A DNA stretch of 64,000 bases from an uncultured delta proteobacterium (lineage in GTDB: Bacteria > Desulfobacterota > Binatia > Binatales > Binataceae), in contig CAVZDJ010000050.1 of NCBI GenBank assembly GCA_963773975.1, positions 6,176 through 70,175 on the forward strand, given 5' to 3'. The first letter of the stretch is position 1. Each line of letters starts with the position of its first letter. Below are positions 2,468-22,512 of the stretch, in pieces. Below the pieces are notes generated by a model, which was not told the origin of the DNA, made no database searches, and saw nothing but the letters and a program-made list of their open reading frames with translations. Both the position numbers and the translations under genes were made by a program.

Positions 2468-3750
2468 TGGTCGAGTCCGAGCACCAGCGCGCCCTGGGCG
2501 GCCGCCTGGCGCGCGGCGAACGTCTGGTCGGGTCGCGCCAGGCGCAACTGCTCGACCTGCTGGAAAGCGTCGAGCACCTCGAGCAGCGTGACGTTGCCGC
2601 CGCCGAGAAAGCGCGTCCAGGTGAGCGCGAAGTTGTCCTGCGCGGTGGGCTCCGCGTCGGCAAGCAGTGCGAGCTGATCGCGCGCCTGCCGGTAACGCGG
2701 CTCCGCATCGGCCAGTTGCTTGCGCAATTCGAATTCGACCTGGCGCGCCTGGGCCTGGGCCGCCGCCACCTTGGCGCGGGCCTCGTCGATATGCGCGGAA
2801 ATTAGCCCACCGTCGAAAATCGGCATCGAAACCAATCCGTCGTACGACGCGCCGGCGTTGTGCGCGAAGGTGTGCGGCGGATTGATGCCCTGCCATCCGG
2901 CGGTCAGCGCCAGCTTCACGGTCGGATAGCGCTCGCGCTCCGCCGCCTGGACGGCGGCCTTGGCTGAGGCGACGCTCCTCTGCGCCGCCTCGAGCATCGG
3001 ATTGCGCGAAAGGTCCTGACCCGGCCACGTGGGCAGGCCGCTGACCTCGGCGACGGTGATATCCGATGGTCCGAACCGACCTGTCAGGGCGCCCAGCACG
3101 GCGGTGGTGCGCTCGACCTCGTGATGCGCGTTCGAGAGCGACAGGCCGGCGCTGTTGCTTGCGGTCTGGACCTTGAGCACGTCGTTGGCGATCGAACGTC
3201 CGCTCGTGCGGAGCGCCTTGACCACGGCCACGTAGCGTTTGAGGCGCGCGTCGTCGGCGACGAACTCGCGTTCGATCTCCTTCGCACGCACGACGTCATA
3301 GTACGCAAGCGTGGTATCGAAAATTATCCGGGCCCGCGCGGCGCGTACGCCGTATCTATCGGCCTCGCTCTGATAGAGCGCCGCGCGGGCCTCGGCCAGA
3401 CGGCGGCCGAAGTCGTAGGCGGTATAGTTGAGCGTGAGCATCGCGTCGGAGAGGCCGCCGTTGGTCACCGCGATGCTGTAGCCGGGCGCCTGCATGTATT
3501 CGGAGCCGGCAGAGAGCGAAGGATAGAGCGGCGCCCGCGCCTCGCGCACCATCGCGCTGCTGAGGTTGCTCTGCGCGCTCGCCGAAGCAACCGTCGGCGC
3601 GAACGCGAGCGCGCGCTGAACGGCCTGCTCGAGCGTGAGCGTTTCGCCGTGTGCGGGAGCGCAAAGCGCCGCAATTGGGAGCGTCGCGGTCAGGACTATC
3701 AGGGCTGTCTGGACCGTCTGGAAATGCCGCAGTAACGCTAGGGGCCGCAT
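2464..3750 (-). CDS. TolC-family outer membrane efflux protein
   Basis: Signal peptide, LTLEQAVQRALAFAP, two OEP repeats (YPSLS...; YPTVKL...VSMPIFDGG), and GGGNVTLLEVLDA. Confidence 0.93.
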   Translation of the reverse strand: MRPLALLRHFQTVQTALIVLTATLPIAALCAPAHGETLTLEQAVQRALAFAPTVASASAQSNLSSAMVREARAPLYPSLSAGSEYMQAPGYSIAVTNGGLSDAMLTLNYTAYDFGRRLAEARAALYQSEADRYGVRAARARIIFDTTLAYYDVVRAKEIEREFVADDARLKRYVAVVKALRTSGRSIANDVLKVQTASNSAGLSLSNAHHEVERTTAVLGALTGRFGPSDITVAEVSGLPTWPGQDLSRNPMLEAAQRSVASAKAAVQAAERERYPTVKLALTAGWQGINPPHTFAHNAGASYDGLVSMPIFDGGLISAHIDEARAKVAAAQAQARQVEFELRKQLADAEPRYRQARDQLALLADAEPTAQDNFALTWTRFLGGGNVTLLEVLDAFQQVEQLRLARPDQTFAARQAAAQGALVLGLDQ

Positions 3751-3831
3751 GGTCCTGCAAACTCCGTCCCGCCAAGGAATGCGTGCGCGAAATTCCTGAT
3801 CAGATCTAACAAGCGGCCCCCGCTGTGACCA

Positions 3832-3847
3832 ATTAACAAACGTTAAT
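3832..3847. promoter_or_regulatory. Palindromic operator candidate ATTAAC-AAAC-GTTAAT upstream of the efflux operon
   Basis: Perfect 6-bp inverted repeat forming an AT-rich island in GC-rich DNA, about 80 bp upstream of the TolC start. Confidence 0.55.
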
Positions 3848-3884
3848 GTTGGGGTTCGCTGGACGCGGGCCCATCGCGCGTCCG

Positions 3885-4409
3885 TCAGCGGCGCATCATC
3901 AGTTCGAAATACGACGCCTCGATTAGCTCGCCTGCGCCGACGCCGAGCCCGGCGAGCAGTTGGTCGACCCGCGCGCGTGCGGAACCTGCGCCGTCGATTG
4001 CGCCTTCCTCGCTCCGCTCGCCCAGTATCGCTTCGATCTCACCGAAGCTGCCGAGGGTCTCGACGCGATCGAGATGGAGGCGAACATTACACCGGGCGAG
4101 CAGCGTGCGATGCTTGCGCACCTCGGCAAGGACGCCGAGCGCGCGTGTGAGCATCTCGCGCGTGCGTGCGGGATCGGCAACCGGCACAATCTCGTAGCGG
4201 CTGAGCATCAGCCCGCTGGCGCGATCGCGCTCATACTGAATCAGCCAGGCCGCGGGCGGTTGCTCGCGCAACTTGAGCTTGCCGCGCGCGACGACAAAGA
4301 ACGTATCGCGCTGATTGAAGTCGGCGTCTGGCGTGTAGCCCAGCGCCAGCGCGGCGGCGCGCGCCGCGTCGAGATCGCTCAGGCGGAATTTAGCCTCCAG
4401 GTTGCGCAT
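3885..4409 (-). CDS. CYTH-domain protein (class IV adenylate cyclase-like triphosphate tunnel enzyme)
   Basis: N-terminal ExK motif (NLEAKFR), QRDTFF, KLKLRE, VRKHR, RLHLDRVETLGSFGEIE and C-terminal SYFEL. Confidence 0.9.
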   Translation of the reverse strand: MRNLEAKFRLSDLDAARAAALALGYTPDADFNQRDTFFVVARGKLKLREQPPAAWLIQYERDRASGLMLSRYEIVPVADPARTREMLTRALGVLAEVRKHRTLLARCNVRLHLDRVETLGSFGEIEAILGERSEEGAIDGAGSARARVDQLLAGLGVGAGELIEASYFELMMRR

Positions 4410-4544
4410 CTAGCGAGCTGTTTGCCGTCTTTTTCGCCTGGTTCCTTTTTACCGGTCCCGGTTACCACGTCCGCTTGATGAACCCGCGGCGGTGGAACAA
4501 TATCAGGCGCGCCCAACCATGTCCCCGAGCAGGAGAGAAACGCG

Positions 4545-4736
4545 ATGGACCAAAAGATTCCCTGCCAGCGGTCCGACTGCGACCAGCCGGGAAAGCTGCG
4601 CACGCTGACGGACCCCGCGAGCAGAAAAAAAGTAAAGGTGAGCCTGTGCGATAAGGATTACAAGGAGGCTCGTGCGAAGGAACAGCCGCCGTTGTGGCTG
4701 ACCGAACTGCTGACGCATATCGGGCTGGTCGGTTAG
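4545..4736 (+). CDS. Small hypothetical protein (63 aa), possible metal-binding (CxxxxC...CxxD)
   Basis: AGGAG RBS upstream, Lys/Asp-rich composition unlike shadow ORFs, and it fills an intergenic gap. Confidence 0.65.
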   Translation: MDQKIPCQRSDCDQPGKLRTLTDPASRKKVKVSLCDKDYKEARAKEQPPLWLTELLTHIGLVG

Positions 4737-4788
4737 CCGCGCGGGCCAAATTGGCGTTCATCCTCATCCATTTCCTGATCGATTTATC

Positions 4789-4818
4789 TTGACATCGTGC
4801 AAAGCCGCCGCATACGCT
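4789..4818 (+). promoter_or_regulatory. Sigma70-like promoter TTGACA-N18-TACGCT
   Basis: Consensus -35 and a 4/6 -10 box about 70 bp upstream of the ATG at 4888. Confidence 0.5.
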
Positions 4819-4887
4819 CGCACCGCCGCCGCGAATCCGCATATTCTTTGATCGTCAAGTAATGCTTCACCCAACGACTTGCTCACG

Positions 4888-6066
4888 ATGACTCACAGCG
4901 ACGTCGAGCGCGAAGACGCAAATCTCCGCGCGGCCGGTTTCGACCCGGCCGCGCCGCCCGCCGAGGCGCTCGCGCGCCTGGGCGAGCTGCGCGCCGCGCC
5001 TGGCGTGAGTCCCGCGGCGATCGCGCGCGCGCTCGGCGCGATCGCGAGCGCGGAAGCGGCTGCGATGCTCGCCGCGATGGAAGCGGGGGCGCGCGGCGCG
5101 CTGCGCCGCGAAGTCCGCCGCGCGCTCTTCCGGCTGGGCCAGCGCGGAATCGCGCCGGCCGCGGTCGCGGCAGCCCCGGCGCGGCCGGCGGCGTCGCCGC
5201 CGGCCGCGCCGGGGCTCAGTGCGCTGTTCTCGCCCGTCGACGCCGACGGCGCGCGCGTCGTGTGGCTCGTGAAGGAGCGCCGGGGCGGCGGACTCGCGCG
5301 CCTTTGGGGGCTGCTCGCGGACAGCGAGGGCCTGATCAACGTCGCACTGAGCGAGCTTTCGCGCCGCGAGTTGCGCACCGAGCGCGCCGAAATGGAGCGG
5401 CGCGCGGGCGTCACCATGGTCGAGGGCGACGCCGGCCTCGCCGACTACATCCTATGCGAGGCGTTTCGCCGCACGCCCGCCGACAGGCGCTCGCAGGTCG
5501 GAAATTTCCTAACCTTGCGCACCGAAATCGTCGGCTCGCCGCCGCCCACGGAAATCGTCCATCCGATTTATGCCGAGATGGCCTCCGCGCTGGAACATGA
5601 GCCGGCCGCCGATCTGCTCAAGGAGCCCGAGATCGGCGCGTGGAAATTTCCTCCCGCCGCGATCAAGCCGTACGTCGACGAGATCAAATCGATTCGGGAA
5701 AGCGTGCTGGTGCTGAACCGCGTCCAGCAGGAAGAACGCATCAATGTGATCGTCGAGCGCGCGGTTGGCGAGTTGCTCGGCGGCGAGCGCGCGGACGGGG
5801 TGCGGCGGCGGCTCGAGGACATCGCCTACTACATGGCGCGAAGCGGGCGGCGCGAGAGCGCGGGATGGGCCGCGGCGGCCGCCGCGCGTTTGCGCGACGG
5901 CGCCGACCCGGGCCGCATCGCGTTCTTCCAGGCGCTGATTCGCGCGCAACTGGGGGCGGTCTTCGCCGAAGAGCAGGAGCGCGCGCGCGAAGAGCCGCGC
6001 CTCATCATGACGCCGGCCGAAGCGATGCGCGCGCAGCAGCAACAGGCGCCTCCGCGGCGGCGCTGA
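4888..6066 (+). CDS. Hypothetical protein, helical (HEAT-like N-terminus)
   Basis: Long ORF with GC3-biased codons. The N-terminus ARALGAIASAEAAAMLAAM...LRREVRRALFRL resembles a HEAT repeat. No family recognised for the rest. Confidence 0.75.
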   Translation: MTHSDVEREDANLRAAGFDPAAPPAEALARLGELRAAPGVSPAAIARALGAIASAEAAAMLAAMEAGARGALRREVRRALFRLGQRGIAPAAVAAAPARPAASPPAAPGLSALFSPVDADGARVVWLVKERRGGGLARLWGLLADSEGLINVALSELSRRELRTERAEMERRAGVTMVEGDAGLADYILCEAFRRTPADRRSQVGNFLTLRTEIVGSPPPTEIVHPIYAEMASALEHEPAADLLKEPEIGAWKFPPAAIKPYVDEIKSIRESVLVLNRVQQEERINVIVERAVGELLGGERADGVRRRLEDIAYYMARSGRRESAGWAAAAAARLRDGADPGRIAFFQALIRAQLGAVFAEEQERAREEPRLIMTPAEAMRAQQQQAPPRRR

Positions 6067-8798: not shown

Positions 8799-9860
8799 TC
8801 AACTCGCGACGAAGCGCTCGGCATAGATTCGCTCGGGGCGCACGCCCAATTCCGCCAGGCGCCGGCGCGCCCCTTCGATCATCGGCGGCGGACCGCATAG
8901 ATAGGCCGCCGCCTCGCGATCGCTTATTGCCTCCACGCCGAGCGCGTCGACCGGCGTGCCCTGGATGAGCCCCGAAGCAGGGTCCTCGACCCGATCGGCC
9001 GAGAGCCGCACGCTTAGCTGCGGGACCCACCACTGACGCAACTCGATTTCGTCGCGGTAAAAGAAGGTCTTGTCACTCGCGCATCCGAAGCTCAGCAGCA
9101 TTTTTGGTTTCGGGCCGCTCGCGCGCCGAATCTCGTCGATCATCGCGAGAATCGGCGCGAGCCCGGTGCCGCCGGCCACGAAAACGTGCAGCCCCTTGCC
9201 TGGATGCAGGATGAATGCGCCGAGCGGGCCTTCGACTTCGAGCCGCTCGCCGGCGCGCGCCGTCCGCAGATATTCCGACATGACGCCGCCGGGAATTATT
9301 CGCACCAGGAATTCCATCTTCGGCAGATCGCGCGGCGTCGAGCACATCGAGTACGAGCGCCATTCCTCGGTGCCGGGCACCTTGATTCGGACGTACTGGC
9401 CAGCGTGGAACGAAACGCCGGCGCGGCGGTCGAGCGCGATCGCGAGTTTCGCGACCGAGGGCGCCGGCCATTCGACGCCTGCCACGCGCGCTTCGAAATT
9501 GCGGCGCTCCTCCGCGTAGATCAGCGAACTGGGGTAGTGCAGCCGAACCACGCTCGGCGCGAGCGCGTGCGCGCTGCAGAGCAGGCGCTTGCCGTCGGCG
9601 ATTTCCGCCGCGATGAGCGAAAGCGCGCGGTCGCGCACCATCTCGAGATTTCCGCTCACCATCTGTCCCACGCAGGTCGAGCAACTTCCCGAGCGGCACT
9701 GGTGGACCAACGGCACACCCTGGCGCAGCGCCGCGTCGAGCACGAACTCGTCCGCCCCGGCTTCGATCTCTTTTTCGACCCCGTCCTCGAAACGCAGCGT
9801 CACGCGCTGAGGATTCGTGGCGGCGGCGGGCGGCGGCGTGGAACTTACTTCTGCGGGCAT
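8799..9860 (-). CDS. Rieske-oxygenase reductase (plant-type 2Fe-2S + FAD + NAD domains), OxoR-like
   Basis: CRSGSCSTC...C ferredoxin motif, WRSYSM FAD motif, VAGGTGLAP, YLCGPPPMI and ERFVAS. Start taken at ATG 9860 (MPAEV) so it does not overlap the oxygenase. Confidence 0.92.
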   Translation of the reverse strand: MPAEVSSTPPPAAATNPQRVTLRFEDGVEKEIEAGADEFVLDAALRQGVPLVHQCRSGSCSTCVGQMVSGNLEMVRDRALSLIAAEIADGKRLLCSAHALAPSVVRLHYPSSLIYAEERRNFEARVAGVEWPAPSVAKLAIALDRRAGVSFHAGQYVRIKVPGTEEWRSYSMCSTPRDLPKMEFLVRIIPGGVMSEYLRTARAGERLEVEGPLGAFILHPGKGLHVFVAGGTGLAPILAMIDEIRRASGPKPKMLLSFGCASDKTFFYRDEIELRQWWVPQLSVRLSADRVEDPASGLIQGTPVDALGVEAISDREAAAYLCGPPPMIEGARRRLAELGVRPERIYAERFVAS

Positions 9861-9901
9861 CGAGGCGAGCGTTTGGGCATTATCATCTGTTGTGCGGTCC
9901 G

Positions 9902-11089
9902 TCAGGGCCCGTTGGGCGATTCGGGCGGCTCCTGGATACCGCGATTGAAGCGCGCCGCGACTTTGCGCCAGGTGATGGTCGCGGCGTCGAAGGCGCACAG
10001 CAACTCGCGATTCCATCCGTCGCCCCGCTCGTAGAAATTCTGCATCGCCTCGCGCGCGAACAGGTCGTTGTCGTTGAAGTCGCGCAATCCCAGCGGCTCG
10101 AGGAAATTATCGTACAGGTAATCCGCTTCGCGCCGCTCCTCCTCGTTGCGGCAGCGGCCGACCAGGATTTCCCAGTACTCGTGATGCTTGTCGTCGGTCG
10201 GCACGTACCATTCGTATTGCGCCCAGCCCGGAATCGGCCAATGCTCGACCAGCAGGATGCCCGGCAGCACCATCGAGGTGCGCGCGTAGTAGGAGTTTTT
10301 GCCGCGCGCGCGCATGTTCACCGCCTTATTCTCCATGATGAATTTGTACGCGCGCGTGTTGTACATGTTCATGATGCCCTTGGGGCCGTCGGGCTCGTCG
10401 ATGATCTTGATCGCCCCCTCGCCGATCGGTTCTACCCCAAGGCCGAGCTTGCGATCGGTTGCCGCGACGATCTGATTGTCCCAGTGGATCAAAAGATGGC
10501 CGGGGTCGAAGCCGTTCTCGACCGCGAGGCGCCAGTTGGAGTTCCCGGTGCGATGGATTCCGCGGACGTAAACGTGCTCATCGAGGATGTGCGCGACGGC
10601 GTTGGCGTCATCGGTGATCCGGATCGGCATGTCGGCTTCCAGAGCGGGCAGCGGCGCGAAATCCTGGTCGCCGACGAAGACGAAGATTAGGCCGGCGCGC
10701 TCCACCACCGGATAGGTGCGGATGCGCACCTTGCCGATCAGCGGATCGTCGGGCGAAGCGACGATCGTCTTCAGCACGCCGTCGTCGAGGCCGTAGGTGA
10801 AGCCGTGGTACCAGCAGGAGAGCGTCTCGGCGGTCAGACACATCGGGCGCAGCGACATTTTGACCCCGCGATGCGCGCAGCGGTCGCGGAGCGCGTAAAC
10901 TTTTCCGCCCGAGCGGCGGAGCACGATATCGTGACCGGCCATCGTCACGCCCTTGACGCCATTCTCCGCCAGCTCGTGGCTGAACAGCGCCGGGTACCAC
11001 GTGTTCTTGAAGCCCCAGTCCGCCTCGACGTAGGGCGCGTACTGCCGGCTGGCCGAAATCGCACTGGAGCTTCGCTCGCTACCGGCCAT
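9902..11089 (-). CDS. oxoO: Rieske non-heme iron oxygenase, 2-oxo-1,2-dihydroquinoline 8-monooxygenase (OxoO)/CarAa family
   Basis: Rieske motif CAHRG...CWYHG and mononuclear Fe motif ENGFDPGHLLIH. WGFKNTWYPALFSHEL, QYEWYVP, HEYWEILV, FNDNDLFAREAMQNFY and ITWRK match OxoO as I recall it. GGAGAG RBS before ATG 11089. Substrate not established. Confidence 0.88.
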   Translation of the reverse strand: MAGSERSSSAISASRQYAPYVEADWGFKNTWYPALFSHELAENGVKGVTMAGHDIVLRRSGGKVYALRDRCAHRGVKMSLRPMCLTAETLSCWYHGFTYGLDDGVLKTIVASPDDPLIGKVRIRTYPVVERAGLIFVFVGDQDFAPLPALEADMPIRITDDANAVAHILDEHVYVRGIHRTGNSNWRLAVENGFDPGHLLIHWDNQIVAATDRKLGLGVEPIGEGAIKIIDEPDGPKGIMNMYNTRAYKFIMENKAVNMRARGKNSYYARTSMVLPGILLVEHWPIPGWAQYEWYVPTDDKHHEYWEILVGRCRNEEERREADYLYDNFLEPLGLRDFNDNDLFAREAMQNFYERGDGWNRELLCAFDAATITWRKVAARFNRGIQEPPESPNGP

Positions 11090-11244
11090 GATCAGCTCTC
11101 CTCGCTCGCCGTTCACGCCCGCGGCGCTGTCCTGGGCTCGCCTGTGGGACCTTTGCCGGGCACGACGCGGCGCATGTTAGACTCATGGACCGCTGCTCGG
11201 CCCGATGTCAACTACGTCCGAATTCAAACCCGGAGACGTAAGTC

Positions 11245-12408: not shown

Positions 12409-13374
12409 GTGAATCAGGACTTCAACAGCAAAAGGCTGGACTACAAGGCCCGCGATAGGATCGGCCGGGTCACGTCGGGCGGGCCGGCGCAGCCGCCGGT
12501 CAGCGACCTCTACTTCTATCTGACCACGGTTTCGTGGCCGGCACTGCTGCTCATAATCGTGGGCCTCTTCGTATTCATCAACTGCCTGTTCGCGCTCGGC
12601 TACATGATCGACGGCGGTGTGGACAACGCCCGCCCGGGCTCGTTCGCCGACGCCTTCTTTTTCAGCGTGCAGACGATGGCGACGATCGGGTACGGCACGA
12701 TGGCGCCGCGCTCGCTGGGCTCCAACATACTGGTGAGTATCGAGGCTCTTAGCGGGCTGGTCGCGCTCGCGGTAGTGACCGGGCTGGTCTTCGCCCGCTT
12801 CTCGCGGCCGACCGCGCGCGTGCGCTTCAGCCAGGCCGTAGTGGTCTCGCCACGCGACGGAGTGCCCTCGCTGATGTTTCGGGCGGTGAACCAGCGCTCC
12901 AACCGCATCGTCGAGGCGCAAATCCACGCCGTCTTCTCGCGCTGGGAGACGACCCGCGAGGGCGAAAGCATGCGCCGCTTCTACGACCTCCATCTTTCGC
13001 GCGCGCGCAACGCGCTGTTCTCATTGAGCTGGACCGTGATCCATCCGATCGTGGAAGGTAGTCCGCTGGTCGGCGAGACCGCGGCGTCGCTCAAGGCCTC
13101 GCGCGCGTTGATCATCGCCTCGCTGGTCGGGATGGACGAATCGTTTCTGCAAAACGTCCATGTGCGCTACGTGTGGACCGCGGACGAGATCGCCTGGGGT
13201 ATGCGCTTCGTTGACGTTTTGCAGGAACTGCCCGACGGCAGCTTTTCGATCGATTACTCGCGCTTCGACGATATCGTTCCCGCGCCGCCAGCGCCGCTCG
13301 ACGGCGCCGCCGCTGAAACGCGGGATGCGGCCGCGGGAGCAGCGGAAAAGGGCGAATTGGAACAGGGTGAATGA
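12409..13374 (+). CDS. Inward-rectifier potassium channel (KirBac family)
   Basis: AFFFSVQTMATIGYG filter, FARFSRP, GVPSLMFR, WTVIHPI and IDYSRF. Confidence 0.95.
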   Translation: MNQDFNSKRLDYKARDRIGRVTSGGPAQPPVSDLYFYLTTVSWPALLLIIVGLFVFINCLFALGYMIDGGVDNARPGSFADAFFFSVQTMATIGYGTMAPRSLGSNILVSIEALSGLVALAVVTGLVFARFSRPTARVRFSQAVVVSPRDGVPSLMFRAVNQRSNRIVEAQIHAVFSRWETTREGESMRRFYDLHLSRARNALFSLSWTVIHPIVEGSPLVGETAASLKASRALIIASLVGMDESFLQNVHVRYVWTADEIAWGMRFVDVLQELPDGSFSIDYSRFDDIVPAPPAPLDGAAAETRDAAAGAAEKGELEQGE

Positions 13375-13760: not shown

Positions 13761-14093
13761 ATGGCCGATCCAATCGAGCGAATCCGTACGGCGATCAACA
13801 GCGACAAGATCGTCATTTTCATGAAGGGCAACCGCAATTTTCCGCAATGCGGATTCTCGGCCGCGACGGTCGAGGTGTTCGAAGAATTGGGCGCGCGCTA
13901 CAGCACGGTCGACGTGCTCGCCGACCAGGAAGTGCGCGACGCGATCAAAGGCTACAGCAACTGGCCGACCATCCCGCAGGTGTTTATCAACGGCAAATTC
14001 GTCGGCGGATGCGACATCGTGCGCGAGTTGCACTCAAGCGGCGAGCTGCAGACGCTGGTGAAAGCCGCGCTGGGCGAGAGCGCGCATCAGTAG
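13761..14093 (+). CDS. grxD: Monothiol glutaredoxin Grx4
   Basis: FMKG...PQCGFS, SNWPTIPQVFINGKFVGGCD; adjacent to bolA. Confidence 0.96.
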   Translation: MADPIERIRTAINSDKIVIFMKGNRNFPQCGFSAATVEVFEELGARYSTVDVLADQEVRDAIKGYSNWPTIPQVFINGKFVGGCDIVRELHSSGELQTLVKAALGESAHQ

Positions 14094-14458: not shown

Positions 14459-15853
14459 ATGCTGTGGAAACCCGACCAGACCTTTTATCCTTCGCCGCGC
14501 ATGGCGATCGAGGGGCCGCGCGAGCGCCTGGGTTACGTCGCGACCTTCAGTCTCGATCCCAAGCACGGCAAACGTGACGCGATTAACGTGCTCGACCTCG
14601 ATCCCGGCTCGCCGAGCTTCGCGAGCGTGGTCGGGCGGCTCGAGATGCCCGACGCCGGCAACGAACTGCATCACTTCGGATGGAACGCGTGCAGCTCGGC
14701 GCTGTGTCCCTACTCGCCGCATCCGCACGTCGAGCGCCGCTACCTGCTGGTGCCGGGCCTGCGCTCCTCGCGGATCCATGTGATCGATACCAAGCCCGAC
14801 CCGCGCGCGCCGAAGATCGTGAAGGTGATCGAGGCCGAAGAGATCGCGTCGCGCGCCGGCTACAGCCGTCCGCATACGTTCCATTGTGGCCCCGACGCGA
14901 TCTACGTGAGCGCCATGGGCGGCGCGCACGGCGGCGGCCCCGGCGGAGTCTTCCTGCTCGATCACGAAAGCTTCGACGTGCTCGGCCAGTGGGAGGTCGA
15001 CCGCGGCCCGCAGTTTCTCGCTTACGACTTCTGGTGGCACATCGGCTACGACGTCGGAATCAGCAGCGAATGGGGCACGCCCGACATGTTCGAGAACGGG
15101 CTCAGCCTCGAGCGTCTGGTCAAAGGCGACTACGGCCATCGGCTGCACATGTGGGACCTCCGCAAACGCCGCCATCTGCAGGAAATCGACCTCGGCGCGG
15201 AGAATCAGATGGCGCTCGAGCTGCGGCCGGCGCACGATCCGACCAAGGCCTACGGCTTCGTCTGCACCGTGATCTCGACCAAGGACCTCAGCGCCGCAAT
15301 CTGGCTGTGGCATCGCGAGGACGGCAACGGCAAATGGGCGGCGCGCAAGGTGATCGAGATTCCCGCCGAACCTGCCGACCCGGCCTTGCTGCCGCCGCCG
15401 CTCAAACAGTTCAAGGCCGCGCCGCCGCTGGTCCCCGAAATTGCGCTCAGCCTCGACGACAAGTTTCTCTACGCTTCATGCTGGGGCACGGGCGAGATCA
15501 AGCAGTTCGACGTGAGCGATCCGTTCCATCCGCGCCAGACCGGGTCGGTGCGAATCGGCGGGATGGCCTCGCGCACGCCGCATCCCAAGGCCGGCAAGGT
15601 CAACGGCGCGCCGCAGATGCTCGAGATCAGCCGCGATGGCCGCCGGATCTACGTGACCAATTCGCTCTACTCGGCGCTCGACGAGCAGTTCTATCCCGAC
15701 GGCATTCGCGGATGGATCGCCAAGGTCGACGTCAACCCGGCCGGCGGCATCGCGCTCGACCCGAATTTTTTCATTCCCTTCGAGGGCGAACGTCCGCATC
15801 AGATCCACCTGGAGGGCGGCGACTGCTCGTCTGATTCGTTCTGCTACCCGTGA
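14459..15853 (+). CDS. Selenium-binding protein SBP56 family (SELENBP1/methanethiol-oxidase-like), no signal peptide
   Basis: ELHHFGWNACSS, LLVPGLRSSRIHVID, SRPHTFHC, AYDFWW, SSEWG, ALELR, PQMLEISRDGRRIYVTNSLY, QFYP and GGDCSSD. ATG 14459 follows an AAGGGG RBS-like sequence. Confidence 0.93.
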   Translation: MLWKPDQTFYPSPRMAIEGPRERLGYVATFSLDPKHGKRDAINVLDLDPGSPSFASVVGRLEMPDAGNELHHFGWNACSSALCPYSPHPHVERRYLLVPGLRSSRIHVIDTKPDPRAPKIVKVIEAEEIASRAGYSRPHTFHCGPDAIYVSAMGGAHGGGPGGVFLLDHESFDVLGQWEVDRGPQFLAYDFWWHIGYDVGISSEWGTPDMFENGLSLERLVKGDYGHRLHMWDLRKRRHLQEIDLGAENQMALELRPAHDPTKAYGFVCTVISTKDLSAAIWLWHREDGNGKWAARKVIEIPAEPADPALLPPPLKQFKAAPPLVPEIALSLDDKFLYASCWGTGEIKQFDVSDPFHPRQTGSVRIGGMASRTPHPKAGKVNGAPQMLEISRDGRRIYVTNSLYSALDEQFYPDGIRGWIAKVDVNPAGGIALDPNFFIPFEGERPHQIHLEGGDCSSDSFCYP

Positions 15854-16524
15854 CCGCGGCCTGGCCGTGGATCGCGATCGCCTTGCTGGGCGCCTATCAC
15901 GGCCTCGACCCGTCGATGGGCTGGTTGTTCGCGGTGGCGCTCGGGCTCCAGGAGCGCCGCCGCGCCAAGGTCTTCGCCGCGCTCGGTCCGATCGCATTCG
16001 GGCACCTGGTCTCGATCGCCACCGTGGTCGCATTGATCGGTTGGGCGCGATTCACGGCGGCGTCTCCACTGTTGCGCCCGGCCGGCGCCGCAATCCTGAT
16101 ATCGTTCGGCATCTTTCGCTATCTCTGGCCGCGCGCGCATCCGCGATGGGTCGCGATGCGCGTCAAATGGTATGAGCTTGCGCTGTGGTCGTTCCTGATG
16201 GCCTCGGCGCATGGCGCAGGCCTGATGCTGTTTCCGATCCTGATGGACATGCCGGGCGGCGCGGCGATGCATCGTCAGATGATGCAGGGCATGCATGGCC
16301 GTTTGATGCATCAATCGATGGCCGCGATGGGCTCGCTCTCGCTCGCGCAGGATGTGGCGGTCGTGCTCTTGCATACGGCCGCGATGCTGCTCGTGATGGG
16401 CACGATCGCCGTCGTGGTCTACGACCGCGTGGGACTGGCATTTCTGCGCGGCGCCTGGATCAATCTCGACGCGGTTTGGGCGGGCGCCCTCATCGCCGCC
16501 GGCCTGCTCTCGCTGCTGATCTGA
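15850..16524 (+). CDS. Integral membrane protein with Met/His-rich loop (NiCoT/UreH-like signature)
   Basis: The GTG start overlaps the SBP56 stop (GTGA). About six hydrophobic segments, LGAYHGLDPSMGW motif, and the loop MDMPGGAAMHRQMMQGMHGRLMHQSMAAM. Confidence 0.85.
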   Translation: MTAAWPWIAIALLGAYHGLDPSMGWLFAVALGLQERRRAKVFAALGPIAFGHLVSIATVVALIGWARFTAASPLLRPAGAAILISFGIFRYLWPRAHPRWVAMRVKWYELALWSFLMASAHGAGLMLFPILMDMPGGAAMHRQMMQGMHGRLMHQSMAAMGSLSLAQDVAVVLLHTAAMLLVMGTIAVVVYDRVGLAFLRGAWINLDAVWAGALIAAGLLSLLI

Positions 16525-16604
16525 ACGCTATCGCGCAGGGACCGTCCGCGTTGTACGCTCGTAACGGCTACTGATGGCCGGATCGCCAACGCCCGAGGCC
16601 CACG

Positions 16605-17321
16605 ATGCCCACCGCGCGTCTGCTGATAGTTGAAGACGAAGCAAAGCTGGCCGCCAACTTAGGGCGCGGACTCGCGGAGGCGGGCTTCGCCGTCCAGGTC
16701 GCGCCGAGCGCCGAGGCGGCGCGCGCGGCGCTGGCGCGGAATGGATACGACCTGATGCTGCTCGACTTGCGCCTGCCCGGTCAGGACGGCCTGGAATTTC
16801 TCGCCGATCTGCGCGCGGCCGGCGCGGCACTCCCGGTGCTCATCCTGACCGCGCGCGATTCCACCGACGAACGCGTGCGCGGCCTGGACGGCGGCGGCGA
16901 CGACTACCTGACCAAGCCGTTTGCTTTCGGTGAGCTGCTCGCGCGCGTGCGCGCGCTGCTTCGGCGGGGGGTAGCGGCTGACAGCCCCGTGCTCGAAGCG
17001 GACGATATAGTAATCGACACTTCGCGGCGCGCCGCGACGCGCGGGGGCCGCACGCTCGATCTGTCGCCCAAGGAATTGATGGTCCTTGAATACCTGGTGC
17101 GCCACGCCGGCCTGGCGGTCACCCGGGACATGATCGGCGAGGCGGTATGGGGCAAGGACTACAACGCGATGTCGAATATCGTCGAGGTCTTCATCAACCG
17201 CCTGCGTCAGAAAATCGAGCTGGTAAATCAGCCCCCGCTGATCGTAACGATCCGTGGCGCGGGCTACATGCTTCGCCTCGATTTGCCCGTGCGCAATAGC
17301 AAGAGCAGAGGCTCCGATTGA
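16605..17321 (+). CDS. OmpR-family response regulator (CusR/CzcR-like)
   Basis: LLIVEDE, LLDLRLPGQDG, LTARD, DDYLTKPFAFGELLARVRALLRR, NIVEVFINRLRQKI and TIRGAGY. Confidence 0.94.
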   Translation: MPTARLLIVEDEAKLAANLGRGLAEAGFAVQVAPSAEAARAALARNGYDLMLLDLRLPGQDGLEFLADLRAAGAALPVLILTARDSTDERVRGLDGGGDDYLTKPFAFGELLARVRALLRRGVAADSPVLEADDIVIDTSRRAATRGGRTLDLSPKELMVLEYLVRHAGLAVTRDMIGEAVWGKDYNAMSNIVEVFINRLRQKIELVNQPPLIVTIRGAGYMLRLDLPVRNSKSRGSD

Positions 17322-18706
17322 GTATTCGGCTGCGACTCACTATCTACTGGACCGCGATCACCGCCGTCATCCTGTTGGCGGCGGGATTGCTCATCATGGT
17401 CATGTTCGGACGCGCGATGTGGAGCACGCTCGACGCGGCGCTGATGGAAGAAGCCGACACGACCGCGGCCGCCATTCCCCATTCCAGCGCCGCCGACACA
17501 AGGCTGATTCTTCAACGCCTCAGCCAGGAAAAGGATTTGGGACCAGGACGGCGGGTGCGTTTGATCGTGGGCGGCCATGTCGCGTTCGACGCCGGCGACA
17601 TCGGCGCGGACCTGCCCGACTTTCAGACGACGACAGGTTCGGTCGTCGACGGCGGGCAACATCGTTATCGCTTCGCGATCGTTTCGCTGCGCGTGAACGG
17701 AGAGCCCGGGTCGCTACAGGATGGTGCCGACGCGGTGCCGGCGCGGCGCGCTATCGCGCATCTGCGAAACGCGCTGCTGCTGGTCATCCCGATTATCCTC
17801 GCGCTCTGCGTTGGCGGCGGTTACTGGATGGCAGGATGGGCGCTCGCTCCGGTTAACCAGGTCACGGACGCACTGGCCCGTATCGGTCCGCGCGATCTGC
17901 GCCAGCGCCTTCCGCTCCCGCGAGTTGACGACGAGGCGGGGCAACTCATCGCCGCCATTAACCGCTTGCTCGAGCGCCTGGAACTCGCGTCCGCCGCACA
18001 ACAACGTTTTATCTCCGAAGCCGCTCATGAATTGCGCACCCCGCTGGCCGTCTTGCGCAGCGGGCTGGAGGTTACGCTGCAACAGCCGCGCGAGGCCGAG
18101 GAAAGCCGCGCGGCGCTGGAGCAGGCGATGGGCGAAGTCGAGCGCCTATGCGCGATCGCGGAAGACCTGCTCGCCCTCGCGCGGCTGGATGCCGAGCCCG
18201 CGGTCGAACGCACACGGGTGGACTTGAGTCAGATCGCGGCCGAAGCGTCCGCGATGGCGCAGACGTTGGCCGAGGCGAAGCATCAGGAATTCGCCCGGAA
18301 TTTCGCCCAGGACTTTGCAGTCGATGCGCACAAGCGAATCGTCGTGCATGGCAGCGCTGGCGATCTGCGCCGAGTCGTGCTGAATCTGCTCGACAACGCG
18401 GTCAAGTTTACTCCCGAGGGCGGCAGAATCGAAATCGGCGTTAGCACCAATGGAGCGACGGCGCTGGTCTCGGTGCGCGACAGCGGTCCCGGTATCGACG
18501 CGCGCGACATCGATCACATCTTCGATCCGTTCTATCGCAGCCGCGGCGCCAATGGCCGAGGTAGCGGTCTCGGACTCGCGCTGAGCCGCGAAATCGTACG
18601 CCGCCACGGCGGCCTCATCCAGGCCGCCAACCGCGCCGCCGGAGGCTGCGAGGTAGCGGTGCGCCTGCCGCTCGCGTCCCGAACGGTCGACCGAGAATCC
18701 ATCTAA
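17318..18706 (+). CDS. Sensor histidine kinase with HAMP domain (CusS/CzcS-like)
   Basis: Two TM helices, HAMP, H-box EAAHELRTPL, N-box NLLDNAVKF, DSGPGI, FDPFYR and GSGLGL; overlaps the regulator stop. Confidence 0.94.
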   Translation: MSIRLRLTIYWTAITAVILLAAGLLIMVMFGRAMWSTLDAALMEEADTTAAAIPHSSAADTRLILQRLSQEKDLGPGRRVRLIVGGHVAFDAGDIGADLPDFQTTTGSVVDGGQHRYRFAIVSLRVNGEPGSLQDGADAVPARRAIAHLRNALLLVIPIILALCVGGGYWMAGWALAPVNQVTDALARIGPRDLRQRLPLPRVDDEAGQLIAAINRLLERLELASAAQQRFISEAAHELRTPLAVLRSGLEVTLQQPREAEESRAALEQAMGEVERLCAIAEDLLALARLDAEPAVERTRVDLSQIAAEASAMAQTLAEAKHQEFARNFAQDFAVDAHKRIVVHGSAGDLRRVVLNLLDNAVKFTPEGGRIEIGVSTNGATALVSVRDSGPGIDARDIDHIFDPFYRSRGANGRGSGLGLALSREIVRRHGGLIQAANRAAGGCEVAVRLPLASRTVDRESI

Positions 18707-21470: not shown

Positions 21471-22512
21471 CTAGCGCTCGACCGGCAGGCGCGCGTCGTT
21501 CCAGTCGAGCATCCCGCCCTTCATGCTGCAGACGTTTTCGAAACCGAGGCCGGTCAGGATCGCCGCCGCAGTCACGCTGCGCACACCCGCGCGGCAGATC
21601 ACCACTATGTCCTTGTCCTTGAAGGATCTGAGTTCGGCCTCGGCGCGTTCGGGCAGCTCACGCAGTGGGATGAGCCGCGCGCCCGCGATATGGCCGAGTT
21701 CGCCCACATATTCCTCGCGCTCGCGCACGTCGAGCAGCAGCGGCGCGGCCGCACTGTCGATGCGCCCGGCGATCTCGTCCGGCGAAAGCTGACGCACCGA
21801 GTTGAGCTGGGCGAGCGTCGGAAAATGGATCGCGGCGGCTTCGATCTCGGTCTGGTTGGGCTGCAGCGCCTCCTGGATTCCCTCGGGCAGCGGCAGTCCG
21901 AGATTGTTCATCAGATCGACGTAGGCCTCGCGCGAGCGTCCGGCCACGCGGGGATTCGAGGCTTTCTCTTCGCCGATCGTGGAACAGATATGGCCGCGGT
22001 AGTCGTGCGCCGGATAGACCAGGGTGGAGTCGGGCAGCGTGAACAGCTTGCGCGTGATCGAGTCGTACTGCTCACCCGCGTCGCCGCCGGCGAAATCGGC
22101 GCGCCCCGTGCCGTGAATCAGCAGGCAATCGCCGGTGAAGACGCGGTCCTCAGCGTAGAGGCTTAACGAGTCGGGAGTATGGCCGGGCGTGTAGAGCACC
22201 TTGAGGTCAAAGTCGCCGACGATCAGCCGCTGGCCGTCCTCCAAATGCATCGTGACGTGCGGCGCCGGAGCCCGCCGATGCATCGCGACCGGCGTGTCGG
22301 TGAGCTGGCGACAGCTCGTGCGCGCCGCTGCGATGGTCGGCGTGAGTATGCGTATCGACAATGAGATCGAGCTTGAGCCGGTGGTATGCCAGCACGCCGA
22401 GATAGCGCTCGACCCGGTCCTTGACCGGATCGATTATCACCGCGCGCTCCATGCCTTCGGAAGCGAGCAGGTAGGTCTTGCACTTGGAGTTGTTCAACTC
22501 GCGAAAGATCAT
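21471..22512 (-). pseudogene. Persulfide dioxygenase (ETHE1-like MBL fold)-rhodanese fusion, split by one extra base at about 22311
   Basis: Frame 1 gives MIFRELNNSKCKTYLL...IIDPV...DTHTHADHRSGAHEL. Frame 2 continues RQLTDTPVAMH...TPGHT...FTGDCLLIHGTGRADF...YPAHDY...TIGEEKASNPR and a rhodanese domain LLDVRE...ICRAGVRS...KGGMLDW. The junction reads CTG-T-CGC and the span is 1042 bp (3n+1). May be a sequencing error. Confidence 0.88.

Follow-up and report, generated by a model that had tools for sequence, protein, structure and literature searches.

An SBP56-family protein and an unnamed six-helix membrane protein form a conserved two-gene pair, a candidate metal-supply module, in Binataceae and other soil bacteria

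Two described types of SBP56-family enzyme (Pfam PF05694) bear directly on the locus reported here. In Hyphomicrobium sp. VS and Ruegeria pomeroyi the mtoX-SCO1/senC-mauG operon brings a member of the family together with a putative metal-maturation partner (PMC5739008), MtoX being exported with a signal peptide to the periplasm, where its partners are SCO1 and MauG. Human SELENBP1, SEMO-1 of C. elegans and RdMTO of Roseobacter denitrificans belong to the same Pfam family, are cytoplasmic, and carry the conserved HH, HxxHC, Asp and Glu residues; a membrane partner for them is mentioned nowhere in the literature examined, which, as for every paper cited here, consisted of parts of the published text. 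Cytoplasmic bacterial methanethiol oxidases of the family are already known, with RdMTO as an example (PMC13603461), and a putative SBP56 oxidase of Methylacidiphilum SolV, whose activity is soluble, is predicted to be cytoplasmic as well (PMC9003020). Here we describe a locus of an uncultured delta proteobacterium of the Binataceae (assembly GCA_963773975.1, contig CAVZDJ010000050.1), lying in a stretch of 64,000 nucleotides that was analysed as a whole and is called the window below. In it, the gene of an SBP56-family protein overlaps that of a six-helix membrane protein, hereafter the partner. We put the probability that the partner is a dedicated metal supplier of SBP56, the two forming an obligate two-gene module, at roughly 55%. 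The source genome is a metagenome-assembled genome (MAG) of 3.2 Mb that is 87% complete, and in public data the locus has its closest relatives under the labels Candidatus Binataceae and ‘delta proteobacterium’.

The evidence that carries this reading begins with gene order. An exhaustive HMMER search for homologues of the partner, clustered at 50% identity, returned 1983 clusters at E <= 1e-3 and 812 at E <= 1e-10, and a word-indexed search returned more than 7800 proteins, of which the 120 best listed are unnamed or called ‘hypothetical protein’. At least 596 genome loci with a partner homologue were confirmed, and the neighbours in the best 80 of them were read by tblastn; these 80 loci come from Binataceae, Chloroflexota, Acidobacteriota, Actinomycetota, Poribacteria, Verrucomicrobiota, Myxococcota, Gemmatimonadota, Dormiibacterota, Abditibacteriaceae and Proteobacteria. 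SBP56 stands beside the partner in 79 of the 80. It lies directly upstream on the same strand in 77 (in several frames at four of these, L019, L054, L073 and L076) and directly downstream in one (L064), while in a Proteobacteria MAG (L056, positions 3565-4989) it is reduced to its last 66 residues upstream of an intact partner gene. This remnant is preceded by an open reading frame (ORF) of 405 residues whose C-terminus reads, by eye, like that of an IS200/IS605 TnpB. In the remaining locus, L016, the contig begins 9 bases ahead of the membrane gene, and adjacency is not assessable. Close apposition or overlap of the two genes is common to most related loci, and the GTGA start/stop overlap in the window suggests that SBP56 and the partner are translationally coupled.

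So that the census would not consist of best matches alone, evenly drawn genome samples were added from the window's class (101 genomes) and from the Actinomycetota, Acidobacteriota and Chloroflexota (201 genomes each). Ten genomes of the class have a partner match. Nine of these are strong (E <= 6e-75), and all nine lie within about 12 bases of an SBP56 gene scoring 518-638 bits; the tenth (in genome G262, E 3.9e-4) is weak and is not on the contig that carries SBP56. Adjacency to SBP56 was likewise found for 6/6 strong matches in the Actinomycetota, 13/13 partner loci in the Acidobacteriota and 16/16 assessable loci in the Chloroflexota, where one more (L099) is cut at the contig start. The actinobacterial genome G467 carries a decayed pair (L140, positions 1581-2349, contig C3), in which large internal deletions have left SBP56 residues 2-84 and 422-464 and partner residues 168-224 in their original order; the same genome retains an intact, unlinked SBP56 of the CSSC type on another contig. 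Since adjacency recurs in every assessable locus with a strong partner homologue it is far beyond chance, and a chance association of the two genes was ruled out by the locus counts. The tie between the membrane family and SBP56 that the initial annotation had proposed was thus borne out: among the strong matches examined none stood without SBP56, so that the observation named there as refuting the proposal, a partner occurring independently of SBP56, was not made.

The dependence runs one way. Of the 36 genomes of the class sample that have an SBP56 above the Pfam gathering cut-off (34 bits), 27 have a low-scoring, MtoX-like one (about 105-170 bits) with no partner beside it, and a single weak partner match among these 27 lies on a different contig. 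Unpublished Actinomycetota genomes are found on both sides, G318 having the pair, and G474 and G420 having SBP56 without the partner. Around the unlinked SBP56 genes examined we found no alternative metal partner, their neighbours being an arginase-family protein, an amidohydrolase, an integrase, a methyltransferase and proteins without a known family. Around the pair itself, clustering of the flanking ORFs of the 80 loci, in which shadow ORFs of high-GC DNA inflate the clusters, gave no third gene that is conserved outside the Binataceae. Which genes lie nearby differs from locus to locus: Thermalbibacter (L058), for instance, has a tandem rhodanese and an alcohol dehydrogenase, and one Acidobacteriaceae MAG has genes for a TetR regulator and a nitroreductase. 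What is conserved is the pair formed by SBP56 and the membrane protein.

The SBP56 of the window scores 616.3 bits against PF05694 and covers model positions 2-453 of 453. It reaches 96.9 bits against the NCBIfam equivalog model for MtoX (NF052453), below the cut-off of 650. Its N-terminus, MLWKPDQTFYPSP, begins so that residue 3 aligns with residue 6 of the leaderless protein 2ECE of Sulfolobus tokodaii (deposited as a hypothetical selenium-binding protein), to which the whole is related at E 9e-194 with roughly 60% identity, by eye, over 462 residues. No hydrophobic leader was seen at this N-terminus or in the in-frame upstream extension from TTG 14393. Alignment and inspection thus agree with the earlier claim that signal peptide is lacking, and SBP56 is, judged from its sequence, cytoplasmic. 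It also differs from MtoX in its surroundings, as had been noted: SCO1-like (PF02630) and MauG-like (PF03150) genes were not found on the window's contig (C50), and those of the genome lie on other contigs (C36, C37 and C42 for the former; C46 and C49 for the latter). The partner, moreover, is integral to the membrane and belongs to a different family from SCO1 and MauG.

Residues H71/H72, H139/H142/C143, D190, E254 and C462 are invariant in the 35 linked SBP56 sequences aligned for this purpose (linked meaning adjacent to a partner gene). In human SELENBP1, His73/74, His137/140, Asp189 and Glu252 are needed for copper binding and activity, and they are conserved in RdMTO (PMC13603461, PMC10362175). 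The linked residues H71/H72, H139/H142, D190 and E254 match these six by motif (HH, HxxHC) and position and not by direct alignment, and C462 corresponds to the C-terminal cysteine; in this sense the copper-site and catalytic positions proposed for SELENBP1 are invariant in the linked proteins. Because the catalytic residues are also metal ligands, however, their conservation cannot discriminate an enzyme from a binder. A different function can accordingly be drawn up for the pair, namely metal or metalloid detoxification, in which SBP56 would bind or sequester a soft metal (Cu, Cd, Se, Ag) and hand the ion to an RcnA-like exporter, in Binataceae under a heavy-metal-type two-component system. 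Proteins of the family were indeed first known as binders of selenium and metals (PMC10362175, PMC10277263). On the other hand, a stoichiometric binder that is 464 residues long and keeps its active-site cavity fully conserved would be an expensive metal chaperone, and the neighbours in other phyla include the tandem rhodanese and the alcohol dehydrogenase and not metal-resistance genes. We consider detoxification unlikely, and return to it below where the partner and the two-component system bear on it.

A FastTree phylogeny of 118 SBP56 sequences, 98 of them linked, was rooted on four MtoX-like rows. Linked loci whose best high-scoring segment pair was shorter than 440 residues or contained stops were left out, and two rows on very long branches (L134 and L135), probably mis-framed translations, were disregarded. 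In this quick tree, which has Shimodaira-Hasegawa (SH)-like supports without bootstraps and does not include eukaryotic and archaeal reference sequences, all linked SBP56s come together in a single clade of the S. tokodaii type (SH-like support 96), with ten unlinked Actinomycetota rows as its sister clade. Four further unlinked Actinomycetota rows are nested within the linked clade, beside a linked Micromonospora pair, and would most simply represent loss of the partner. The canonical CSSC motif, which SELENBP1 and RdMTO also carry, is found in the unlinked Actinomycetota clade, whereas the enzyme of the window reads CSSALC and then PHPH and falls in the separate clade with 2ECE; the CSSC-type Actinomycetota SBP56s examined are, unlike that of the window, unlinked. 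As far as the part of the source consulted goes, a modified CSSC occurs in Acidobacteria, Fungi and Archaea, with a basal group of Acidobacteria, Fungi and S. tokodaii (PMC10277263), and the CSSALC of the linked clade fits this basal group. Of the ‘cytoplasmic, eukaryote-like’ thiol oxidase of the initial annotation, therefore, the location stands, and the likeness to the eukaryotic CSSC type gives way to a clade of S. tokodaii and Acidobacteria type. Pairwise distances of SBP56 and partner correlate with r 0.70 over the 98 pairs, a value that none of 500 permutations reaches (maximum 0.126), and this means that the two are co-inherited as a unit and is not evidence of contact. A prediction of their complex, with both chains given as alignments and run without controls, gave scores of 0.00 and 0.22 where the mark is 0.32, which speaks neither for nor against binding.

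The partner has no match in NCBIfam, nor in Pfam at E <= 0.01. AlphaFold2, supplied with an alignment of 53 diverse members of the family, gave a confident six-helix model (predicted local distance difference test score 89, predicted template-modelling score 0.85), in which the transmembrane helices TM1 and TM4 are broken at the motifs HG.NP.MGW and AHGAGLM. The near-invariant residues of the alignment are H17, G18, N20, P21, M23, G24, W25, G51, H52, H97, W113, S114, H121-M126, P129 and H175, and the conserved motifs are H17-G-x-N/D-P-x-M-G-W in TM1, G51-H52 in TM2, H97 in a cytoplasmic loop, H121-G-A-G-L-M in TM4 and H175 in TM5. Scanned against Pfam at E <= 10, the 53 members matched 31 families with none recurrent, a phmmer search of the PDB sequences with the partner found nothing at E <= 10, and the best hit of a wide VIA-align search (Z 6.7) is within the noise for helical bundles.

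The nearest known family was reached through two bridging proteins. In two small Chloroflexota genomes (about 1.4-1.5 Mb) the N-terminal half of the partner is matched weakly (L116 and L117; E of about 1e-12 and 3e-11) by proteins of 230 residues that pass the Pfam NicO model (PF03824), with 36.3 and 32.8 bits against a gathering cut-off of 27.7. These proteins have HGFEPGHGW in TM1 and a His-rich stretch of the HEHEHEH type after TM3, and no SBP56 was found near them. An hhalign comparison of the 53-member alignment with the protein of L116 gave a probability of 96% and E 2.9e-9 over 83 columns, a match confined to TM1-3 and made to a single 36.3-bit member, which includes the HG..P..GW and GH motifs and places GAYHGLDP opposite HGFEPGHGW. 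In a protein atlas the nearest clusters are NicO and DsbD_2 (0.87-0.89). By the curated thresholds the partner is not a member of NicO: the protein of the window has no match to PF03824, and the families listed at E <= 10 for the 53 members do not include NicO. The partner is, as far as sequence comparison can place it, a probable remote relative of the NicO/NiCoT-RcnA proteins. The ‘NiCoT/UreH-like motif’ proposed earlier hence probably reflects a real, if remote, homology, and membership of the family does not follow from it. The likeness extends to the aligned TM1-3 with HG..P..GW and the GH of TM2, the six-helix size and a variable, ligand-rich loop. This loop follows TM4 in the partner, where its ligands include Met and Cys, but TM3 in NicO, where they are His, Asp and Glu only. 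Whereas the partner is strictly coupled to SBP56, the NicO bridge proteins go with ArsR-type regulators (their neighbours were read in L116) and without SBP56.

This kinship can be turned in favour of detoxification, for the partner is remotely related to NicO/RcnA and RcnA is an efflux protein. In L116 (positions 1-1785) the NicO gene adjoins an ArsR-type regulator and an ORF that resembles the N-terminus of a metal P-type ATPase (it has no Pfam match), so that L116 is a compact metal-homeostasis locus. The same kinship weighs against a second alternative, in which the partner is a redox partner or membrane anchor: its conserved transmembrane histidines would be ligands of haem b or a docking site for a quinone, and it would take the electrons of SBP56, which would then be a membrane-linked thiol dehydrogenase instead of an enzyme that releases H2O2. 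Four transmembrane histidines (H17, H52, H121 and H175) are nearly invariant, the partner depends strictly on SBP56, and there is a weak Foldseek likeness to the electron transporter CcdA that is a hint at most. The remote homology is nevertheless to a metal-transporter family and not to cytochromes b, the histidines sit in Gly/Pro-rich helix breaks as they do in transporters, the weak Pfam matches of the 53 members include no haem-protein family, and the variable loop rich in Met, His and Cys would be left unexplained. We judge both the redox role of the partner and the corresponding dehydrogenase reading of SBP56 to be very unlikely.

The orientation of the partner was read from its basic residues and bears on which way an ion would move. 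Over the protein of the window and up to 111 related loci, the mean number of Lys and Arg is 2.6, 3.8 and 1.7 in loops 1-2, 3-4 and 5-6, and 0.04, 0.17 and 0.53 in the N-terminus and loops 2-3 and 4-5. This distribution, read by the positive-inside rule, places the termini and loop 4-5 outside and loop 3-4, with its conserved RHPRW, in the cytoplasm, so that the Met/His/Cys-rich loop 4-5 is predicted to be extracytoplasmic. Its length ranges from 8 to 92 residues across the family. It is rich in Met and His in the close relatives of the window and in some Acidobacteriota, His-rich in many other loci and of the form CHG..CH in Myxococcota; the extreme of the family is a protein of the Abditibacteriaceae (L074, positions 5001-5843), with 17 Met and 14 His in a loop of 92 residues. 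The loop packed with Met and His that had been singled out in the window is thus present there, but Met richness is a trait of certain lineages and not of the family at large. Ligands such as Met, His and Cys on the outer face would fit the capture of Cu(I) for import better than the efflux of Ni or Co. A soft-ligand loop that is predicted to lie outside likewise argues against detoxification, as does the His-rich stretch of the bridging NicO proteins, which, lying between TM3 and TM4, would be on the opposite face if the topologies are equal.

Taken as a dedicated metal supplier, the partner would work as follows. Outside the cytoplasm, its loop rich in Met, His and Cys would capture a soft metal ion, for which Cu(I) is the likeliest candidate; the ion would then cross the membrane by way of a site to which the broken helices TM1 and TM4, together with TM2 and TM5, contribute their conserved His and Met residues; and it would be released at the cytoplasmic face to newly made SBP56, translated from the same mRNA. 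SBP56 would be a cytoplasmic metal-dependent thiol oxidase acting on methanethiol or comparable small thiols, with an aldehyde, H2S or sulfane sulfur, and H2O2 as its products, and the metal would probably be copper. The observations behind this reading are the pair itself, its one-way dependence, the remote homology to NicO, the composition of the loop and the conserved residues of SBP56. Functional precedents exist in SCO1 of the mtoX operon (PMC5739008) and in PpoB1-PpoB2 of Marinomonas mediterranea (COG5486/PF09948), a tyrosinase operon whose second gene encodes a transmembrane metal-binding protein, PpoB2, that transfers copper specifically to the enzyme PpoB1 (PMC2855505). The enzyme in that case is a different one and the family of PpoB2 is unrelated to the partner; PF09948 was not among the 25 families listed of the 31 matched by the 53 members. 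A more specific version holds that the partner is a Cu(I) importer, a new branch of the NicO superfamily with loading of SBP56 as its sole role, which would insert the ion directly into nascent SBP56 at the membrane. This version we advance tentatively, at less than even odds.

Several points weigh against the partner as a metal supplier. Some 27 Actinomycetota genomes carry an SBP56 that is near full-length and high-scoring, and about 21 of these gave no match to the partner at E <= 0.01, so that SBP56 enzymes can be metallated in its absence; recombinant SELENBP1 and RdMTO, too, gain copper in E. coli or in vitro (PMC10362175, PMC13603461). The loop has 8 residues and neither Met nor His in L114 and in L115/L119, and it lacks His in about ten further loci. 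RcnA, the best-known small relative in NicO, is an exporter. All 53 aligned members, like the partner itself, stay below the Pfam thresholds, and fold searches were uninformative, the best Foldseek match in the PDB having E 0.19 and CcdA a TM-score of 0.39 with E 0.71. A heavy-metal-like two-component system beside an importer would be unexpected if that system senses metal excess. No assay of an SBP56 of the linked clade was found in the portions of the literature examined. Finally, metal transport, its direction and the identity of the metal are, together with the hand-over, the enzyme activity and the topology, what we infer and not what was observed.

The two-component system of the window consists of an OmpR-type response regulator and a sensor kinase, whose genes overlap by 4 bases and begin 80 bp downstream of the membrane gene. 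Homologues of the two follow the pair in 11 of the 24 Binataceae-type loci (L005-L028, several of them cut short), and of the other 56 loci of the set L051 alone has a match, to the regulator without the kinase and on the opposite strand. In NCBIfam the regulator scores best against TIGR01387 (206.4 bits; cut-off 279.2) and the kinase against TIGR01386 (207.2 bits; cut-off 292.55). Both models are of heavy-metal subfamilies, which would suit detoxification, but both scores fall below the family cut-offs, and the system is absent from linked loci outside the Binataceae save for the lone regulator of L051. The two-component system is thus specific to a lineage, some Binataceae, and not part of the conserved core, and the ‘metal-type’ label given to it at first holds for the best models and fails for the curated cut-offs and for the conserved system. 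In this Binataceae lineage the OmpR/kinase pair may regulate the SBP56 pair or be co-transcribed with it. A glutaredoxin match near the pair is similarly confined by tblastn to Binataceae-type loci (13/24, against 0 in L029-L084).

The features of the locus are collected in Table 1; the SBP56 gene, the membrane gene with its motif and loop, and the regulator/kinase pair were all found where the initial annotation had placed them, as were the GTGA overlap and the spacing to the regulator gene. Promoter and terminator scans of the locus stayed at the level of shuffled sequence, and no terminator-like site was found between the membrane gene and the regulator gene. Short contigs in two soil metatranscriptome runs, each from a different study, are 90-96% alike to parts of the SBP56 and regulator genes, and none falls on the membrane gene; consisting of contigs only, the runs do not allow expression level or co-transcription to be read. 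About 1 kb upstream of the pair lies a gene for a prokaryotic potassium channel of the inward-rectifier type (12409-13374, + strand; IRK_C and Ion_trans_2). Further upstream a Rieske/homotrimeric ring-hydroxylase oxygenase stands beside a ferredoxin-FAD/NAD reductase (8799-11116, - strand), which looks like an aromatic demethylase or hydroxylase system unrelated to the SBP56 pair.

Table 1. Features of the SBP56 locus in the window (position 1 is the first letter of the window).
Feature	Coordinates	Strand	Basis or remark
Glutaredoxin gene, upstream of the pair	13761..14093	+	Pfam PF00462, 76.8 bits
SBP56-family protein, 464 aa	14459..15853	+	ATG 14459 to TGA 15853; Pfam PF05694
Six-helix membrane partner, 224 aa	15850..16524	+	GTG start; no Pfam or NCBIfam family
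GTGA start/stop overlap	15850..15853	+	GTG 15850 over TGA 15851-15853
GAYHGLDP motif, partner residues 14-21, at the TM1 break	15889..15912	+	Sequence, alignment, AlphaFold2 model
Variable TM4-TM5 loop, partner residues 131-165	16240..16344	+	9 Met and 3 His in 35 residues
OmpR-type response regulator	16605..17321	+	Pfam Response_reg and Trans_reg_C
HAMP-HisKA-HATPase sensor kinase	17318..18706	+	Pfam; two membrane segments, periplasmic domain of ~120 aa

On the other side of the pair, 5 kb away, an ORF with metallo-beta-lactamase and rhodanese domains (21471-22361, - strand) looks like a persulfide-dioxygenase/rhodanese fusion, and its product could handle the sulfide or sulfane sulfur that a thiol oxidase would yield. 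Sulfur genes of this kind near some pairs, this ORF and the tandem rhodanese of L058 among them, invite a last alternative, in which the partner carries a small sulfur compound and not a metal, bringing thiol in or letting sulfide, sulfite or persulfide out. The strict coupling of the two genes speaks for it, and the nearest atlas clusters include families of the DsbD_2 type, whose cargo is varied. Yet membranes are freely permeable to methanethiol and H2S, His and Met are the residues conserved, as is typical of metal sites, and the one remote homologue that can be demonstrated is a NicO metal transporter. A substrate or product carrier seems to us scarcely probable.

No description of the membrane partner was found in the literature, as far as the parts of the main texts consulted go, supplementary tables not being covered. 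Its family is unnamed and widespread, with some 2000 clusters at 50% identity in many soil phyla, and since none of its strong, assessable matches stands without SBP56 it provides a concrete and testable candidate for the copper-supply step of cytoplasmic SBP56 thiol oxidases, the family to which human SELENBP1 belongs. The pair occurs in cultured bacteria (Sorangium, Micromonospora and Thermalbibacter longus), which makes genetics and biochemistry feasible. To our knowledge, both cytoplasmic copper enzymes and dedicated copper importers are rare in bacteria. SBP56s of the S. tokodaii-type clade have a maturation or working context distinct from those of the MtoX and the SELENBP1/RdMTO types. 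Should the partner prove to be a Cu(I) importer, the pair would represent a dedicated route of copper import and insertion for a cytoplasmic bacterial cuproenzyme, and the whole S. tokodaii-type clade of SBP56, spread over many bacterial phyla, would be copper enzymes of reduced-sulfur metabolism.

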